DNA of 52,137 nucleotides, taken from the IMG/VR virus record IMGVR_UViG_2778261534_000002; one strand, given 5' to 3'. A program made the position numbers and the translations under genes. The notes beneath the pieces are model-generated. The model was not told where the DNA came from, ran no database searches, and saw only the letters and a list, made by a program, of their open reading frames with translations. Position 1 is the stretch's first letter, and each line of letters starts with the position of its first letter. This document shows, in pieces, positions 8,652 to 48,526 of the stretch. The DNA comes from a virus (taxonomy: Duplodnaviria; Heunggongvirae; Uroviricota; Caudoviricetes).

Positions 8652-8666
8652 TTAAATTTCTAACAT
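8652..8666. promoter_or_regulatory. operator-like 15-bp motif
   Basis: TTAAATTTCTAACAT, member of recurrent family ATGTTAGAAAACTAA / TTAGTTTTCTAACAT. Confidence 0.4.
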
Positions 8667-8753
8667 AGTGTATTTATATACACTGTTGATCCTGGTGGAT
8701 GGGATCGAGTAGGATCGCGGTCACTGCTCCGGTAGCGACTGCCAAAAAAGCAA

Positions 8754-9854: not shown

Positions 9855-9898
9855 GTGTTAGAAAATTAATTTGCTGTTTCTAAATCGGAATGTATGAT
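9855..9898 (+). promoter_or_regulatory. operator-like motif overlapping sigma70-like promoter of immunity module 1
   Basis: GTGTTAGAAAATTAA (9855-9869) followed by -35 TTGCTG (9871-9876), 16-nt spacer, -10 TATGAT (9893-9898). Confidence 0.45.
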
Positions 9899-32836: not shown

Positions 32837-32851
32837 ATTAAATTTCTAACA
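32837..32851. promoter_or_regulatory. operator-like 15-bp motif
   Basis: TTAAATTTCTAACAC directly after the dre stop codon. Confidence 0.35.
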
Positions 32852-42922: not shown

Positions 42923-42953
42923 ATGTTAGAAAACTAAAATCAATGTTCTAACA
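42923..42953. promoter_or_regulatory. operator-like motif pair
   Basis: ATGTTAGAAAACTAA (42923-42937) plus partial inverted copy TGTTCTAACA (42944-42953). Confidence 0.45.
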
Positions 42954-44200: not shown

Positions 44201-44505
44201 TTTGTTTTCTCCTGTCTGAACATCACTATCATCAGGTCGCCTTTTGTCGCTATCCTCGCTGTTGTGCCTGGTTCAATGCTGCCAAGTTCAAATGCGTCAT
44301 AGAACGCTTCTAATGCCTTCTGGCGTAGTTCCTGTTTGCGCCGTTTTTTCCACTGTTTCAGGAAAATGGAACCCAGCCATCGCCATGTACGGGACATGAT
44401 GTAAAGCCAACCGAGAAGTGCCAGACCGGTATTTAGGGCCGTATCGAGCGTTATCGTGGTGTCGATATTCACTGGCTGCTTCCTTTGCGAATCTGTTCCG
44501 CCCAT
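44197..44505 (-). CDS. hypothetical membrane protein
   Basis: 102 aa; hydrophobic helix LALLGWLYIMS followed by basic stretch. Confidence 0.4.
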   Translation of the reverse strand: MGGTDSQRKQPVNIDTTITLDTALNTGLALLGWLYIMSRTWRWLGSIFLKQWKKRRKQELRQKALEAFYDAFELGSIEPGTTARIATKGDLMIVMFRQEKTK

Positions 44506-45254
44506 TCTTCAAGGGATTTCTCCGCATATTCACCGGACAGGCCATCAAGCGGATGCGGTTCATTAGCCAACTCTTCTTTCGCTGACAAAATCATGCGTGT
44601 AACGTCGAAAACTTCACGCAAAGACTTATTGATAAATCCGTGATTGAACGCAGCAGCAAGACGGCTTGCGGTGTAGTTAATCCCCTCGTTGCGTGCCTCC
44701 GCACGTACTTCAGCCAGGAAAGCGTCGGTGGCCGGAGTTTCAGGAATCCGTCTCCTCATCAGTTCTATTGCATGATTGAACCCGAAATCTTCCGCGAGAG
44801 ATACGTCATCCATATTGTCATTGTCATCCTCAATATCCCGTGATTCTGGAATTGCAGACTTTATTCCCGCATTCTCCGCCGCCAGCGCCGCGCAATTACC
44901 CTCCAGCTCTGCAATGCGCTGTTTTGCGGCATCAAGTTCAATCGATAATTTTTCCAACTGCTCTTTATGCTTCTTGTATTCCTGATATGCGTGCCAGGAC
45001 TGACCTTTGCGCACACTATCAGTAATATCAGTAATCTGTTCTGGTGTTAGCGTGGTCAGTGGCTGTGCTGGAAAAATCATCACTTGCCCGGCATCCCAAT
45101 CAAAACCCACCTGAATTGACTGAACCTCAACTGATGGTGTTGAACCGATGCGACCAGGCGAATGAACAACGATCGTTACATCCATATCGCGACGATGGCT
45201 GTGGTTGTTGGACAAAATACGATTCACCAACTCAGAAAATTTGGAAAATTTCAT
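44469..45254 (-). CDS. coiled-coil paralog A (Ea22-like family)
   Basis: 261 aa from ATG 45254 (ATGA overlap with upstream gene); shares coiled coil ([15 protein letters not shown]) and C-terminal block ([19 protein letters not shown] ... EQIRKG) with 45574..46242 and 46239..46748. Confidence 0.5.
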
Positions 45255-45577
45255 GCTGATTCCCTTTGCTCTTCCTGGATAATGTTGTTGCAATCTTTCA
45301 CGCACTCGTTGCAGATGAAAACGTTGTCCCCGGCAATTAACTTTTTAACGGTGTGCTGGGATTTGTTACAGAAGCTGCAATAAAGCGTTGGACTGGCTGA
45401 TACGGATGGTGCGCCAGATGTCAGCCGCGCGATGTCGTTCTTGCGACGCAATATCACACGGCTGCACTCGACCAGCATCTCCGGGGATATCTTCTCCTCC
45501 GTAGCGAGCGTTTCTAATCGTTCGAGTATGTGGAAGGCTTTTTCCTGGGTAATTGCAGAATGCGATGTGGTCATCAT
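45251..45577 (-). CDS. protein with ClpX-type zinc-finger domain
   Basis: 108 aa; C-terminal [35 protein letters not shown] closely matches the ClpX N-terminal C4 zinc-binding domain pattern. Confidence 0.6.
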
Positions 45578-46242: not shown

Positions 46243-46748
46243 TGGATGACTCCTTTACGAAGCTGTTCGGCGATATCTTCGAGAACGCCATCAGAGAATG
46301 AGCGGTCAAAATCGCCTTCCGGCGCATTAGCCATAAACTCAGTAGAGGTAAGAATCATCCGGGCAATATCCGCGGCGTTCTTCGCAGTATCATCAATAAA
46401 ACCAGCTACCCAGGCAGCCAGCATTCTGTTCGCCACAAAGTAAGCGCCCTCCTTGCGTGCTTCAGTCTTCACTTCATCCAGGAAAGTGTCGGTCGCAGGA
46501 GTAGTTTTTTGTGGTGATAGGGCGATACGAATTGTTTCAAGAGCTGGATCTATTTCCACTGTTGGCACCTTGATAAAACCAAGCTGCACGCCATTCATAA
46601 TGAACGTGCGGCGATCCTCACATATCGCCTTCAGTCTCGCATTCTCCGCAGCCAGCGCCGCGCGCTCTTTCTCAAGTCGGGAAATTTCCGTTACATACTC
46701 AGCGTTACGCTCTGCCAGTTGTGCGGGCGTTAAACCTTCAGACTTCAT
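46239..46748 (-). CDS. coiled-coil paralog C (Ea22-like family)
   Basis: 169 aa; coiled coil and C-terminal block TPATDTFLDEVKTEARKEG ... EQLRKG. Confidence 0.5.
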   Translation of the reverse strand: MKSEGLTPAQLAERNAEYVTEISRLEKERAALAAENARLKAICEDRRTFIMNGVQLGFIKVPTVEIDPALETIRIALSPQKTTPATDTFLDEVKTEARKEGAYFVANRMLAAWVAGFIDDTAKNAADIARMILTSTEFMANAPEGDFDRSFSDGVLEDIAEQLRKGVIQ

Positions 46749-47055
46749 ACACTCTCCTTTCGAAATAAACGTACTGATTAATCATGCCCAGGGGCATTTC
46801 GAGTTTTTCCGCGATCTCACGGCGGGGAACACCACACTGATGAAGCTGCCGTGCCAGTTCTATATCGCTCTGCCGGTATTTGGCTGACGGATGAAAGTCT
46901 CCTTTCAGAATCATGCTGATCCCCAACTCCCGCGCTTTAGTCCTGACGGCATCACCGGTACGACCGATCAGCTTCCCAATACTCTCGACCGTCATAGTTC
47001 CGGCGCACTGGCGGAGTATCATGATTTCTGCCCTTCCCCATCCCCGCCAGCTCAC
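46738..47055 (-). CDS. HTH DNA-binding protein
   Basis: 105 aa; two helix-turn-helix-like segments (TVESIGKLIGRTGDAVRTKAREL; VPRREIAEKLEMPLG). Confidence 0.45.
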   Translation of the reverse strand: MSWRGWGRAEIMILRQCAGTMTVESIGKLIGRTGDAVRTKARELGISMILKGDFHPSAKYRQSDIELARQLHQCGVPRREIAEKLEMPLGMINQYVYFERRVYEV

Positions 47056-47678
47056 GCCGACATCCTCTGAGACATAAACTCCACAAAACGAACTGCATCT
47101 TCAGAAACAACGCCGCATGACTTCAGATAATTCATTGCGTCATTAGGTAGCGGATTAGTTGGTTCGGCATTTGCCAGGGATTGAGATAAACGCGTGATTA
47201 ATTTGACCATTCTCCGCTGCCGGAGGTTGTATCCTTCAGCTAAAGACAGGTAACTGGAAAGGGTATTGCTTAAGCGGGCGCGAAGCTGATCCGTGCCGTG
47301 ACATTCAATAGCAACATCACGTAATGCATCGACCAGTTCACGGTAAAGATGCGCTGCCATTCTGCAATCTGTGTCAGATGGTGCTTCATAAATTACCGTC
47401 AACCCCAGTTTTTCAGCCAGAGCGTGTTCTGCACGTGCTCCTGCGGACACATCCCATCCCTTAAGCAGATAGATCGCATCAGCAGAACGCACCATTGCCA
47501 GACAAATATCCATGTATTCGCTCTGGCAGAGGCCAGCAGGTAACAGCGCCGGATTCAGAACAATATGCCCTTCCTCCATCAGCTCTTTTGCTTTCGAAAA
47601 AAACGCTGTGCGGTTGTAGTCGGGATAACCAGTCATCGGCCCCGCGATGTAAATTTTCAAAACACATCTCACCATCAA
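47052..47678 (-). CDS. DUF4406-like (nucleoside 2-deoxyribosyltransferase-like) protein
   Basis: 208 aa; N-terminal IYIAGPMTGYPDYN ... LLKGWDVSAGARAEHALAEKLG resembles the nucleoside 2-deoxyribosyltransferase-like fold; extra C-terminal domain; first gene of leftward operon. Confidence 0.45.
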   Translation of the reverse strand: MMVRCVLKIYIAGPMTGYPDYNRTAFFSKAKELMEEGHIVLNPALLPAGLCQSEYMDICLAMVRSADAIYLLKGWDVSAGARAEHALAEKLGLTVIYEAPSDTDCRMAAHLYRELVDALRDVAIECHGTDQLRARLSNTLSSYLSLAEGYNLRQRRMVKLITRLSQSLANAEPTNPLPNDAMNYLKSCGVVSEDAVRFVEFMSQRMSA

Positions 47679-47868
47679 AATTTCCCCAGCATCGTGACGA
47701 AAAACATCAGCACGGCAAAAAGCTCAATACCTAATTCAAGTAGCGCCAACGCCCCGAAAAAAAACACATAGAACAGGCCAATCTCATTCACAGATGGCTG
47801 GTGGATCGCACTTAAAGCTATAAGCATCATGTCCTCCAAACATTTATCAGTGATGATATTAATGTTTT

Positions 47869-47883
47869 GTGTTAGAAAATCAA
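47869..47883. promoter_or_regulatory. operator-like 15-bp motif in divergent promoter region
   Basis: GTGTTAGAAAATCAA with partial inverted partner TATCTAACC 10 nt downstream. Confidence 0.4.
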
Positions 47884-47947
47884 TTTTGAATATCTAACCA
47901 TTTTGATCAATCATAGAAAAATCGTTGAAAAGTAAGAGACTGCCATC

Positions 47948-48526
47948 ATGCAGAAACAGAGTTATTGGGAGAAACAGAGACAAAAAGCCATGCAAAAATT
48001 GGCTGACCCGGCCTGGCGAGAGGAACAAAGGGCAAAGCGCCTTCAACAAGCTCAACGCCAGCAGCAGCGAGCGAGAGAAAAAGCCGCATCGCCTGAATAT
48101 CGGCAAAAGAAAATTGAAAAAGCAAAACAATATGAACAGCGGAGAAAAGATAAATCTGTATCCGCTCCGCCCAAAAAAACACGCACGTCACGCGGCCTGA
48201 AGGGCAGATCACTCACAGCCGATGAACGCCGGATACAGACCGCTATCGGTACTCTCCCCTGCATTGCCTGCCATATTCACGGGCAACATAGCCCAGTGGT
48301 ATCCCTGCACCATATCTTCGGGAGAACGGCAGAGAACGCGCATAAATATGTCCTCCCTTTGTGTAAATGGCACCACCAGTACGCAGCGCCAGCCGAGGTC
48401 CGAGACCAATATCCCTGGCTGGTCCCTGTTCATGCTGATGGAAAAATAGGCGGAAAAGCAGATTTCATGCGGCACAATGCCGATGAAATGACGTTGTATC
48501 TGATGGCGATTGAATTGATAAATTAG
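47948..48526 (+). CDS. Ref-like HNH endonuclease
   Basis: 192 aa; K/R/Q-rich low-complexity N-terminal 80 aa followed by Cys/His motifs CIACHIHG ... LHHIFG ... CKWHHQ, the architecture described for P1 Ref. Confidence 0.5.
   Translation: MQKQSYWEKQRQKAMQKLADPAWREEQRAKRLQQAQRQQQRAREKAASPEYRQKKIEKAKQYEQRRKDKSVSAPPKKTRTSRGLKGRSLTADERRIQTAIGTLPCIACHIHGQHSPVVSLHHIFGRTAENAHKYVLPLCKWHHQYAAPAEVRDQYPWLVPVHADGKIGGKADFMRHNADEMTLYLMAIELIN

Follow-up and report, generated by a model that had tools for sequence, protein, structure and literature searches.

The window analysed here, a stretch of 52,137 nucleotides, is a D6-like (P1-family) E. coli phage-plasmid. In the region studied, a leftward operon is separated from the divergently transcribed ref gene by an intergenic region of 120 bp, which is 94% identical to that of phage D6. 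The features of the locus are as follows.

47948..48526, plus strand: Ref-like RecA-dependent nuclease gene (Pfam RecA_dep_nuc, E 2.6e-34; phrog_2321), divergently transcribed.
47871..47898, no strand assigned: 28-bp near-palindrome with halves GTTAGAAAATCAA / TTGAATATCTAAC, an inverted repeat in the divergent intergenic region.
47675..47827, minus strand: 50-aa hydrophobic ORF upstream of the DUF4406 gene, with which the leftward operon actually begins.
47052..47675, minus strand: two-domain DUF4406 coding sequence, 207 aa from the ATG at 47675, stop codon at 47052-47054.
47388..47657, minus strand: N-terminal DUF4406 domain with the fold of nucleoside 2-deoxyribosyltransferases (NDTs), aa 7-96.
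Minus strand, key codons: Tyr9 47651-47649, Pro42 47552-47550, Cys58 47504-47502, Ser77 47447-47445, Glu83 47429-47427.
47055..47381, minus strand: C-terminal all-helical domain, aa 99-207, without a Pfam or PDB relative.
47271..47357, minus strand: helix-turn-helix-shaped module of about 30-35 aa inside the C-terminal domain ('aHlYRELVdALRDvAiecHGTdQLRaRL').
46738..47055, minus strand: 105-aa helix-turn-helix (HTH) protein downstream of the DUF4406 gene (phrog_323, E 6.7e-28), annotated 'DNA-binding protein'.

The first-pass annotation had placed an open reading frame at 47052-47678 on the minus strand. It exists exactly there, and the mechanical call gives 208 codons from a TTG at 47678. The ATG at 47675 is the likelier start of the gene, while PGAP starts the identical plasmid copy at another TTG (47660). 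In RefSeq, the plasmid protein WP_001344858.1 ('DUF4406 domain-containing protein') matches the window protein at 100% identity; the phage D6 counterpart, orf89 (YP_009914766.1), is 73% identical to it. Against the D6 orthologue, dN/dS is 0.31 overall, 0.16 in the N-terminal domain and 0.46 in the C-terminal domain, and because of the values for the two domains the gene is regarded as real and constrained. The RefSeq and D6 copies lie in the same ref / orf88 / DUF4406 / HTH block as the window gene, and no family-level difference separates the window protein from Pfam DUF4406 proteins. The RefSeq and phage D6 annotations already record this gene together with its domain and position. The finding of DUF4406 is ordinary and adds little for this window.

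The gene had also been described as the first of the leftward operon. It is the second, since the conserved 50-aa ORF precedes it and stands between it and the divergent promoter region. This small ORF matches phrog_8890 (E 2.5e-33) and is orf88 in the D6 annotation and a hypothetical protein in the PGAP annotation. It has a GGAGG Shine-Dalgarno sequence ahead of its ATG, and its TGA stop and the DUF4406 start codon overlap in the sequence TGATG. The same ORF precedes the full-length DUF4406 gene in D6-like loci (cluster 15). On the other side, the GTG start of the 105-aa HTH gene overlaps the DUF4406 stop (GTGA). Homologues of this HTH gene (cluster 7) follow DUF4406 in 10 loci and precede it in 8, and small HTH proteins (DUF977, or the 105-aa protein in these two gene orders) repeatedly adjoin DUF4406 genes. 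Essentially all of the D6-like E. coli plasmids found, 99 genomes, retain the ref / 50-aa ORF / DUF4406 / HTH block. A variable defence or anti-defence hotspot was therefore rejected as an explanation of the locus, as mosaicism begins only further downstream.

The far side of the shared control region is bounded by ref, which carries the same annotation in D6 and E. coli plasmids. The half-site of the near-palindrome occurs 7 times against 0.9 expected, and the extended consensus TGTGTTAGAAAWTTAAT was found at 8653, 9857 and 32839. The near-palindrome may act as a repressor operator or be part of an overlapping promoter. A sigma-70 promoter scan of 47500-48100 yielded no consensus promoter. 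The P1 C1 operator consensus ATTGCTCTAATAAATTT had a single match, which lies at 42942 and contains 3 mismatches; matches as good arose in 15 of 100 shuffles, and there was none in the ref/DUF4406 intergenic region of the window. Therefore, no P1-type operator can be claimed. That the DUF4406 gene belongs to an early operon is plausible, judging from the conserved palindrome in the promoter region that it shares with ref.

Residues 7-96 of the window protein cover positions 2-91 of the 91-position Pfam model DUF4406 (PF14359; E 3.9e-34) at 117.4 bits versus a gathering cut-off of 22. The same domain is matched by phrog_355, 'nucleoside 2-deoxyribosyltransferase' (E 1.3e-42), so that the proposed N-terminal resemblance to deoxyribosyltransferases is far beyond chance. 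It is also matched by phrog_12019 ('MazG-like pyrophosphatase'). DUF1937 gave a weak Pfam cross-match (E 0.06); its representative (PDB 1T1J) is a structural-genomics protein, likewise uncharacterised, and adds no functional information. For PF05014, the window protein has no Pfam match and the scores of its relatives are below threshold. The N-terminal domain is predicted by AF2 with a pLDDT of about 90, and the top Foldseek matches of the predicted structure are NDTs, MilB, BlsM, BcmB and DNPH1. The best PDB match is the Trypanosoma brucei NDT (2A0K), with a profile E of 0.005 and a Foldseek E of 5e-4; a direct sequence search of the PDB gave marginal matches only (T. brucei NDT, E 0.1). Thus, both HMM and structure comparison bear out a Rossmann-like alpha/beta fold of the NDT type rather than an unrelated one. 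With four strands and about 90 aa the domain is shorter than any characterised NDT or DNPH1, and it is shown here to be a minimal member of the nucleoside 2-deoxyribosyltransferase superfamily.

The DUF4406 signature, Y-[IV]-A-G-P-M-T-G ... N ... F ... N-P ... W-x-x-S-x-G-A-x-x-E-x-x-x-A, is kept in 95-104 of 105 homologues. All of its residues are found in the window protein, namely Y9, G12, P13, M14, T15, G16, N21, F25, N41 and P42 in the first part and W74, S77, G79, A80, E83 and A87 in the second. Y9, G12, P13, N21, P42, S77, G79 and E83 are kept in 99-104 of the 105, which is essentially all of those that cover these columns. In the profile-to-PDB alignment, Glu83 falls on the Glu of the motifs DCGTAFE (T. 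brucei NDT) and SPGTHIE (BcmB), which is the catalytic nucleophile in the NDT family and opens the helix behind the G-x-x-x-E loop. It is invariant in all 104 sequences that cover its column, among relatives down to about 27% identity. By hhalign, Glu83 also aligns with Glu103 of the phage enzyme DmtZ, in which Glu103 and Tyr6 are essential by mutagenesis (PMC12884076). Tyr9, within K-I-Y-I-A-G-P, aligns with the Tyr of KIYIAGP in T. brucei NDT, which in this superfamily closes strand 1 and orients the Glu, and its column holds 99 Tyr and one Phe among the homologues covering that position.

Ser77 (Ser in 103 of 104 homologues) aligns with a Ser in BcmB and with an Asp in T. brucei NDT. Nucleoside-specific transferases carry at this place the 5'-OH-binding Asp of D-x-G-x-x-x-E. 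The window protein has instead an uncharged small residue at the 5'-phosphate pocket, as expected of (d)NMP N-glycosidases and DmtZ-type enzymes. In DNPH1, MilB and DmtZ the residue at this position is described as contacting the phosphate, and Pro at the position of Pro42 is described as a transferase feature (PMC12884076). Judged by these alignments, the active site is a hybrid, with Ser77 of the 5'-phosphate-binding type and Pro42 of the transferase type. The third residue of the catalytic triad, an Asp or Asn on helix 2, is replaced. Cys58, placed in this column by alignment, faces Asn in T. brucei NDT, Asn77 in DmtZ and Asp in BcmB, and the column has Cys in 94 of 103 homologues and Asp in only the 7 most distant. 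In DmtZ, the N77D exchange cost about 100-fold in kcat/Km (PMC12884076).

DUF4406 is present in 651 of 50,697 GenBank phage records, where its usual neighbours are replication and nucleotide genes, and IMG/VR gave at least 591 confirmed matches. The genes ahead of it in 80 IMG/VR relatives are DnaT-like, DnaC-like, DnaB or Dam genes. The domain is fused to a deoxynucleotide monophosphate kinase in two proteins (P0101 and P0103) and to a MazG/PRA-PH pyrophosphohydrolase in gp166 of mycobacteriophage NihilNomen. Brynnie gp50 ('deoxycytidylate deaminase') was rejected as a fusion, as it consists of the DUF4406 domain only. Fusions and gene neighbourhoods favour a role in nucleotide or DNA metabolism. 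The domain is common in phages, yet a literature search found no functional study and no published assay of any DUF4406/PF14359 member; the matches were genome annotations or retron NDT effectors.

We give a probability of roughly 45% to the reading that the window protein is an early-expressed (deoxy)nucleoside-5'-monophosphate N-glycosidase or phosphoribosyl-transferase with a helical tail for assembly or targeting. The proposed activity is extrapolated from relatives at about 20% identity. The protein would be a cytoplasmic two-domain accessory protein of the D6-like phage-plasmid, and its gene and about 20 other small genes would be read from the promoter region that the operon has in common with ref. 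It would cleave an N-glycosidic bond by covalent catalysis on Glu83, positioned by Tyr9. The substrate most likely bears a 5'-phosphate, because Ser77 stands where nucleoside-specific transferases have Asp. Transfer of phospho(deoxy)ribosyl groups may be possible as well, because Pro42 is the water-excluding residue typical of transferases. Such a hybrid hydrolase/transferase profile would be the one described for DmtZ. With Cys58 in place of Asp/Asn, activation of the leaving group would have to differ from that in canonical enzymes, and the true substrate may be other than a standard dNMP. The biological role would be to remodel or sanitise the nucleotide pool as phage DNA replication sets in. 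Cleavage of dNMPs is argued against by the triad, which on the alignment is incomplete at Cys58, and by the very small size of the domain noted above. Furthermore, there are no other nucleotide-metabolism genes and no base hypermodification pathway nearby in the window phage-plasmid, so that a purpose for dNMP cleavage is not evident.

The functionally closest enzyme to the proposed activity would be DmtZ of Gordonia phage Ghobes and Arthrobacter phage Wayne, a dAMP hydrolase / 2'-deoxyribose-5-phosphate transferase (PMC12884076). This comparison, as one of functional analogues only, shares the probability given to the preferred reading. Both proteins are phage-encoded members of the NDT superfamily with a Glu nucleophile and an N-terminal Tyr, both pair a non-Asp, phosphate-compatible residue in the 5' pocket with a transferase-type Pro, and DmtZ can be fused to a dNTP pyrophosphatase, like DUF4406 elsewhere. 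However, DmtZ has Asn77 where the window protein has Cys58, lacks a helical C-terminal domain and comes from phages that have PurZ and a 2-aminoadenine (Z) genome. In 36-50 kb of the window, read against the D6 and plasmid annotations, no purZ-type gene was found. DmtZ was also rejected as a member of DUF4406, as it has a sub-threshold PF05014 match only and an hhalign probability of 5% to the DUF4406 profile. DNPH1/Rcl, MilB, BcmB and BlsM share the S-x-G-x-x-x-E motif with Ser at the phosphate position, as seen here in the alignment with BcmB. In contrast to the window protein, they retain the Asp of the triad and have no Pro (BcmB carries Ala in the Pro42 column and Asp in the Cys58 column), and they are proteins of 130-160 aa with a fifth strand and only 15-20% identity to it. 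The NDTs of PF05014 (T. brucei 2A0K, Lactobacillus NDT/PDT) share the Y-x-A-G-P start, Pro42, Gly79 and Glu83, but differ in the 5'-OH-binding Asp, which is Ser77 here, and in the triad Asp/Asn, which is Cys58 here.

A classical NDT, exchanging bases between free deoxynucleosides for salvage, is implied by the name of phrog_355, by SEA-PHAGES and by many phage annotations. The T. brucei enzyme as top PDB match by sequence and by Foldseek and the conserved Pro42, a transferase feature (PMC12884076), point the same way. Nevertheless, this function is unlikely. The 5'-OH Asp is replaced by Ser77, matching the CMP N-glycosidase BcmB, the triad Asp/Asn is absent, PF05014 scores stay below threshold in the relatives, with none for the window protein, and the fusions point to phosphorylated substrates. 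In addition, transglycosylation in vitro was not seen with two PF05014 NDTs that came from unmodified phage contigs (bioRxiv 10.1101/2025.10.22.683976). The incomplete triad, the very small domain and the repeated adjacency to small HTH proteins would also suit a protein that binds nucleotides without catalysis, as a sponge for an immune signal or as a receptor for a regulatory ligand, with the helical C-terminal domain multimerising it or linking ligand binding to a partner, for instance the neighbouring HTH protein. SLOG and TIR-like folds do serve as ligand sensors (ThsA SLOG). However, Glu83 in 104 of 104 sequences and Tyr9 in 99 of 100 (the other being Phe) argue for retained chemistry and the known phage sponges Tad1, Tad2 and Acb2 have unrelated folds, which makes a pure binder quite unlikely. 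A helper of DNA methylation, which would relieve product inhibition of methyltransferases by cleaving S-adenosylhomocysteine (SAH) or another adenosyl by-product of this kind, as an MTA/SAH nucleosidase does, is highly improbable. DNA methyltransferase genes adjoin DUF4406 in several phages that are unrelated to each other, namely the P2-like prophage L009, Acidovorax phage Alfacinha3, Gordonia phage Gudmit and Pseudomonas LESphi3, and DUF4406 lies next to Dam in IMG/VR loci (cluster 25). Still, such loci are a minority, no methyltransferase adjoins the gene in the window, and neither the phosphate-type site at Ser77 nor the dNMP kinase and MazG fusions fit SAH. No NDT-fold enzyme is known to use SAH.

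The first-pass annotation had further suggested interception of nucleotide immune signals. The window protein has no Pfam or PHROG match to the Tad1/2, Acb1/2 and Apyc1 families and no meaningful PADLOC match. Neither similarity to a known anti-defence family nor linkage to an anti-defence locus was found, and the gene is a core gene of D6-like plasmids. An enzymatic version of this idea is a glycohydrolase of the NAD+/NMN or ADP-ribose type, acting as a counter-defence destroyer of nucleotide-derived immune signals (such as cADPR isomers) or as a toxic or defence effector of prophages. It would use an NDT/TIR-like pocket with a Glu nucleophile and no general-acid Asp on a substrate with an activated (cationic) leaving group. 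Loss of the triad Asp/Asn (Cys58) across the enterobacterial clade would fit substrates whose leaving group needs no protonation, and the NDT-like effector of retron Ec86 is reported to deplete adenine derivatives (cited in PMC11482910). The gene is also located in accessory early regions; one Vibrio phage has a Lar restriction-alleviation gene two genes away from it. On the other hand, PADLOC, a defence library, returned only a chance-level GajA match (E 0.02, 11.6 bits), sequence and Foldseek rankings are nearer to NDT, MilB and DNPH1 than to TIR, and the fusion partners are dNMP kinase and MazG rather than NAD-related enzymes. Moreover, as a conserved core gene of D6-like plasmids it is not a variable island gene, and the literature on NDT-type proteins and anti-defence offered no support. 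A glycohydrolase of this kind is thus doubtful. That the 'Y-M-x-I-C' enterobacterial/Vibrio clade of DUF4406 forms a new class of phage enzymes cleaving N-glycosides with an activated leaving group (NAD+/NMN, or immune signals derived from nucleotides such as cADPR isomers), with the shuffled C-terminal domain docking it to a partner in D6-like phage-plasmids, is very unlikely. If true, this clade would be a previously unrecognised family of counter-defence (or prophage defence) enzymes, widespread in temperate phages.

If DUF4406 were instead, in line with the preferred reading, a DmtZ-like (d)NMP N-glycosidase or transferase, editing of the nucleotide pool as replication begins would extend to ordinary temperate phages whose DNA is unmodified. 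Such editing would fall outside the textbook biology of lambdoid, P2-like and P1-like phages. Leaving aside the 2018 D6 genome paper, the literature searched and the D6 and RefSeq annotations contained no description of the Cys-for-Asp replacement in the triad, of the mixed hydrolase/transferase signature or of the 35-aa C-terminal module as a reusable unit.

The unrelated C-terminal domain that had been postulated is confirmed by our results, since Pfam and NCBIfam scans gave no family match for residues about 99-207 and a separate domain of four or five helices is predicted (pLDDT 50-90). In a dedicated AF2 model it reached a pLDDT of 72.6 and a pTM of 0.43, with pLDDT 50-70 over half of its length. 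A Foldseek search of the PDB with this model gave no match at E<1, and Tad1 appeared among the fold matches only at an insignificant E of 9.7. A HMMER search with the domain yielded only 22 matches among 1.84 billion representatives, none of them annotated. Most DUF4406 family members are about 115 aa long and lack the helical domain; the only source of the two-domain form in our searches was D6-like elements of E. coli, Shigella and Salmonella. Enzymes of the NDT family act as oligomers. Because of this, and because the module is reused by enterobacterial phages on many different 'head' domains, the C-terminal domain may mediate self-assembly or attachment to a partner; a coiled-coil, oligomerisation or targeting role is a guess from the predicted model. 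Its autonomy is illustrated by two proteins (P0108 and P0110) that carry the whole domain on other N-termini. The helix-turn-helix-shaped module is its best-predicted part (pLDDT 86-90) and recurs in many otherwise unrelated enterobacterial phage proteins, with DUF551 proteins among its partners. Across 24 proteins, the module residues L118, R119, A122, Q130, L131 and R132 are invariant.

The gene for the DUF4406 protein was placed by the first-pass annotation at 47052-47678 on the minus strand, and the ORF is found exactly there. TTG 47678 is immediately followed by ATG 47675 and, because this ATG overlaps the stop of the upstream ORF (as TGATG), we provisionally take the gene as 47052-47675 (207 aa). 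PGAP starts it at TTG 47660. The choice of start is irrelevant to the DUF4406 domain, since its first strand starts at Lys7. A deoxyribosyltransferase-like N-terminal domain joined to an unrelated C-terminal domain had been proposed, and both parts were borne out: residues 7-96 are a full-length match to Pfam DUF4406 (E 3.9e-34) with a PHROGs domain match to phrog_355 ('nucleoside 2-deoxyribosyltransferase'), and no Pfam or NCBIfam model matched residues 99-207. The whole protein matches the unannotated phrog_5781. The finding holds, as does its structural interpretation, yet it repeats existing database annotation, as 'DUF4406 domain-containing protein' is already the name in Escherichia phage D6 and in the RefSeq entry of an identical plasmid-encoded protein (WP_001344858.1). 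The D6 counterpart, orf89, is annotated 'similar to N-term half gp57 of phage N15'. No function of DUF4406 was reported in the literature searched.

Features of the leftward operon and its control region
47871-47898: near-palindrome of 28 bp in the 120-bp region between the operon and the divergent ref gene (Ref-like RecA-dependent nuclease)
47675-47827, minus: strongly hydrophobic 50-aa ORF (orf50), true first gene of the operon (phrog_8890, E 2.5e-33; D6 orf88; PGAP annotation)
47052-47678, minus: DUF4406 gene as the mechanical ORF call from TTG 47678
47271-47357, minus: helical module of about 35 aa, common to many otherwise unrelated enterobacterial phage proteins (P0107, P0109, P0113-P0125)
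46738-47055, minus: 105-aa helix-turn-helix (HTH) protein, next downstream; its GTG start overlaps the DUF4406 stop (GTGA)

An AlphaFold2 model built with 31 homologues as input gave the N-terminal domain a pLDDT of about 90 and four parallel strands alternating with helices. In a Foldseek comparison with the PDB this model was placed first with nucleoside 2-deoxyribosyltransferases (NDTs; T. brucei 2A0K, E 5e-4), followed by the CMP N-glycosidases MilB, BlsM and BcmB and, after them, DNPH1, each at probability 1.00; the predicted fold thus agrees with the deoxyribosyltransferase-like one that had been suggested. Active-site residues were assigned from alignments rather than by coordinate superposition, using the family profile aligned to PDB sequences, a joint alignment and hhalign against DmtZ, an NDT-superfamily enzyme of Gordonia phage Ghobes and Arthrobacter phage Wayne; the three were mutually consistent.

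Active-site positions of the DUF4406 protein, counted from ATG 47675
Tyr9: Tyr of KIYIAGP in T. brucei NDT; matches DmtZ Tyr6 by position, not alignment; 99 Tyr, 1 Phe
Pro42: the transferase Pro, Ala in BcmB; invariant (102/102)
Cys58: the triad's third position, where most of the family (BcmB) has Asp and T. brucei NDT and DmtZ have Asn; Cys in 94/103
Ser77: Asp (5'-OH contact) in nucleoside-specific NDTs, Ser in the CMP N-glycosidase BcmB; 103/104
Glu83: Glu of the G-x-x-x-E motif (T. brucei NDT, BcmB), Glu103 of DmtZ; invariant in 104/104 covering sequences

Glu103 of DmtZ was shown to be essential, and the Pro at the Pro42 position is conserved in transferases and excludes water (PMC12884076). 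Asp occurs at the Cys58 position only in the seven most distant DUF4406 homologues; on these alignments, Cys for Asp/Asn is a clade-wide active-site substitution, of which no description was found in the literature searched. The Cys58 codon lies at 47502-47504 (minus strand). Judged from the alignments, the pocket mixes hydrolase-type and transferase-type features without the usual general acid. DmtZ, a dAMP hydrolase that also transfers deoxyribose-5-phosphate onto 2-aminoadenine (PMC12884076), is like the DUF4406 protein in combining both kinds of features and is the nearest characterised phage enzyme. It is a functional analogue and not a family member, because Pfam does not assign it to DUF4406 and its hhalign probability is 5%; it also acts in Z-genome phages, and no purZ-type gene occurs in the examined stretch around the DUF4406 gene.

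Substrate clues come from domain fusions. DUF4406 is fused to a deoxynucleotide monophosphate kinase domain (PF21448) in two metagenomic homologues and to a MazG/PRA-PH-type NTP pyrophosphohydrolase in Mycobacteriophage NihilNomen gp166. Both partners have (d)NMPs as product or substrate, in accord with the phosphate-type Ser77. The DUF4406 domain of the window protein is also matched by phrog_12019 ('MazG-like pyrophosphatase'). Arthrobacter phage Brynnie gp50, considered as a dCMP deaminase fusion, contains DUF4406 alone. We tentatively favor, at roughly 45%, a putative (d)NMP N-glycosidase or phospho(deoxy)ribosyl-transferase, expressed early, with an unusual Cys where the general acid would be and a helical domain for assembly or targeting. 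Beside these (d)NMP-related partners, an NAD+/ADPR-type glycohydrolase seems unlikely. A classical NDT, which the Foldseek ranking and phrog_355 would suggest and which would carry Asp in place of Ser77 if nucleoside-specific, is less likely again. Loss of the usual general acid might point to a non-catalytic binder, a reading that we regard as improbable next to the invariant Glu83. A counter-defence enzyme on activated N-glycosides is more doubtful still, and a SAH-type nucleosidase, set against the Ser shared with a CMP N-glycosidase, very improbable.

The DUF4406 gene had been described as opening the leftward operon, but that position belongs to the 50-aa ORF, which has a GGAGG Shine-Dalgarno sequence, is translationally coupled to the DUF4406 gene through TGATG and probably encodes a small membrane protein. 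Beyond the HTH gene, closely spaced small genes extend the operon to the left; they encode Ead/Ea22-like proteins, a ClpX-zinc-finger protein, DUF4752, the P1-type ppp phosphatase and others. The intergenic region towards ref is 94% conserved with D6. The half-site of the near-palindrome occurs seven times elsewhere in the window (0.9 expected), and its extended form, TGTGTTAGAAAWTTAAT, at three other intergenic places (8653-8664, minus; 9857-9868, plus; 32839-32850, minus). Since the P1 C1 operator consensus was not found in this intergenic region, the palindrome may serve as operator for the D6-type prophage repressor. Its conservation and recurrence fit repressor control and hence, we infer, early expression of the operon. 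The sole P1 C1 operator match in the window (42942, three mismatches) is no better than chance, and a consensus scan of 47500-48100 found no sigma-70 promoter. On the minus strand, one half-site is immediately preceded by the inverted repeat AGTGTATATAAATACACTAT (about 8665-8684), which may resemble that of P1 late (Lpa-dependent) promoters.

Other DUF4406 loci share early expression beside DNA replication functions. By tblastn the domain is present in 651 of 50,697 phage records (hosts Mycobacterium, Vibrio, Arthrobacter, Gordonia, Pseudomonas and others), usually among replication genes, e.g., those for a sliding clamp, an exonuclease, SSB and a helicase. In 80 close IMG/VR relatives a stand-alone DUF4406 directly follows the replication module (DnaT-like, DnaC/IstB-like, DUF1627 with DUF977, or DnaB, or Dam) and precedes an Ea22-like protein. 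It lies between Dam methylase and replication gene A in a P2-like prophage (L009, 5543-7351), in a lambdoid prophage at the end of the early-left operon nearest int, and behind RdgC and SSB, near a Lar gene, in a Vibrio phage. The 105-aa HTH gene adjoins DUF4406 in two orders, downstream in D6-like elements and immediately upstream of stand-alone DUF4406 in eight lambdoid-type loci among IMG/VR loci L013-L092, which hints at a possible functional pairing with a small DNA-binding protein; in 36 others the upstream neighbor is DUF977, also a small HTH protein. DNA methyltransferase genes (Dam-type or cytosine-specific) adjoin DUF4406 in several unrelated phages (L009; phage-record matches H28, H46 and H52; cluster 25), a possible association.

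An exhaustive HMMER search with residues 99-207 against 1.84 billion representatives matched only 22 proteins. Two of these (P0108, 127 aa; P0110, 161 aa) carry the full C-terminal domain on different N-termini, which makes it an autonomous unit. Most others have only the module in common ('P-H-x-Y-R-E-L-V-N-x-L-R-D-x-A-x-x-Y-x-G-T-x-Q-L-R-E-x-L', with L, R, A, Q, L and R invariant), sometimes in two copies per protein and often joined to DUF551. It matched no Pfam family, neither here nor in the partner proteins scanned. A dedicated model of the domain is helical (helices 10-26, 33-70, 78-88 and 94-108), with good confidence for the module only, and matched nothing in the PDB. We infer a role in assembly or docking, which is the weakest part of our account. 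Compared with the D6 orthologue, the C-terminal domain (61% identity, dN/dS 0.46) and the N-terminal domain (85%, 0.16) are both under purifying selection, weaker on the tail.

The region around the gene is 90.5% identical to D6 DNA, and the gene is 100% identical to copies on plasmids of about 90 kb in many E. coli strains. Among 5,426 complete E. coli genomes, 100 matches occurred in 99 genomes, all plasmid-borne and none chromosomal. These matches mark the window as part of a D6-like phage-plasmid of the P1 family. The two-domain form is confined to D6-like elements of E. coli, Shigella and Salmonella, where the ref/orf50/DUF4406/HTH block is conserved and mosaic exchange with chromosomal lambdoid prophages begins only further downstream; therefore, the gene is a core gene of this lineage and not a variable island gene. 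Further along the operon, a 108-aa protein (45251-45577, minus) is recognisable solely by a C4 zinc finger of the ClpX type (Pfam zf-C4_ClpX, E 1e-17) and lacks the AAA+ module. Such a stand-alone ClpX substrate/adaptor-binding domain could interfere with host ClpXP. P0064, a 167-aa protein from a Logan contig, joins the DUF4406 domain up to ...ARAEHALAE to the last 80 aa of an Ead/Ea22-like protein, the donor being the 278-aa protein of the window (44469-45305), and apparently arose by deletion within the operon or by chimeric assembly.
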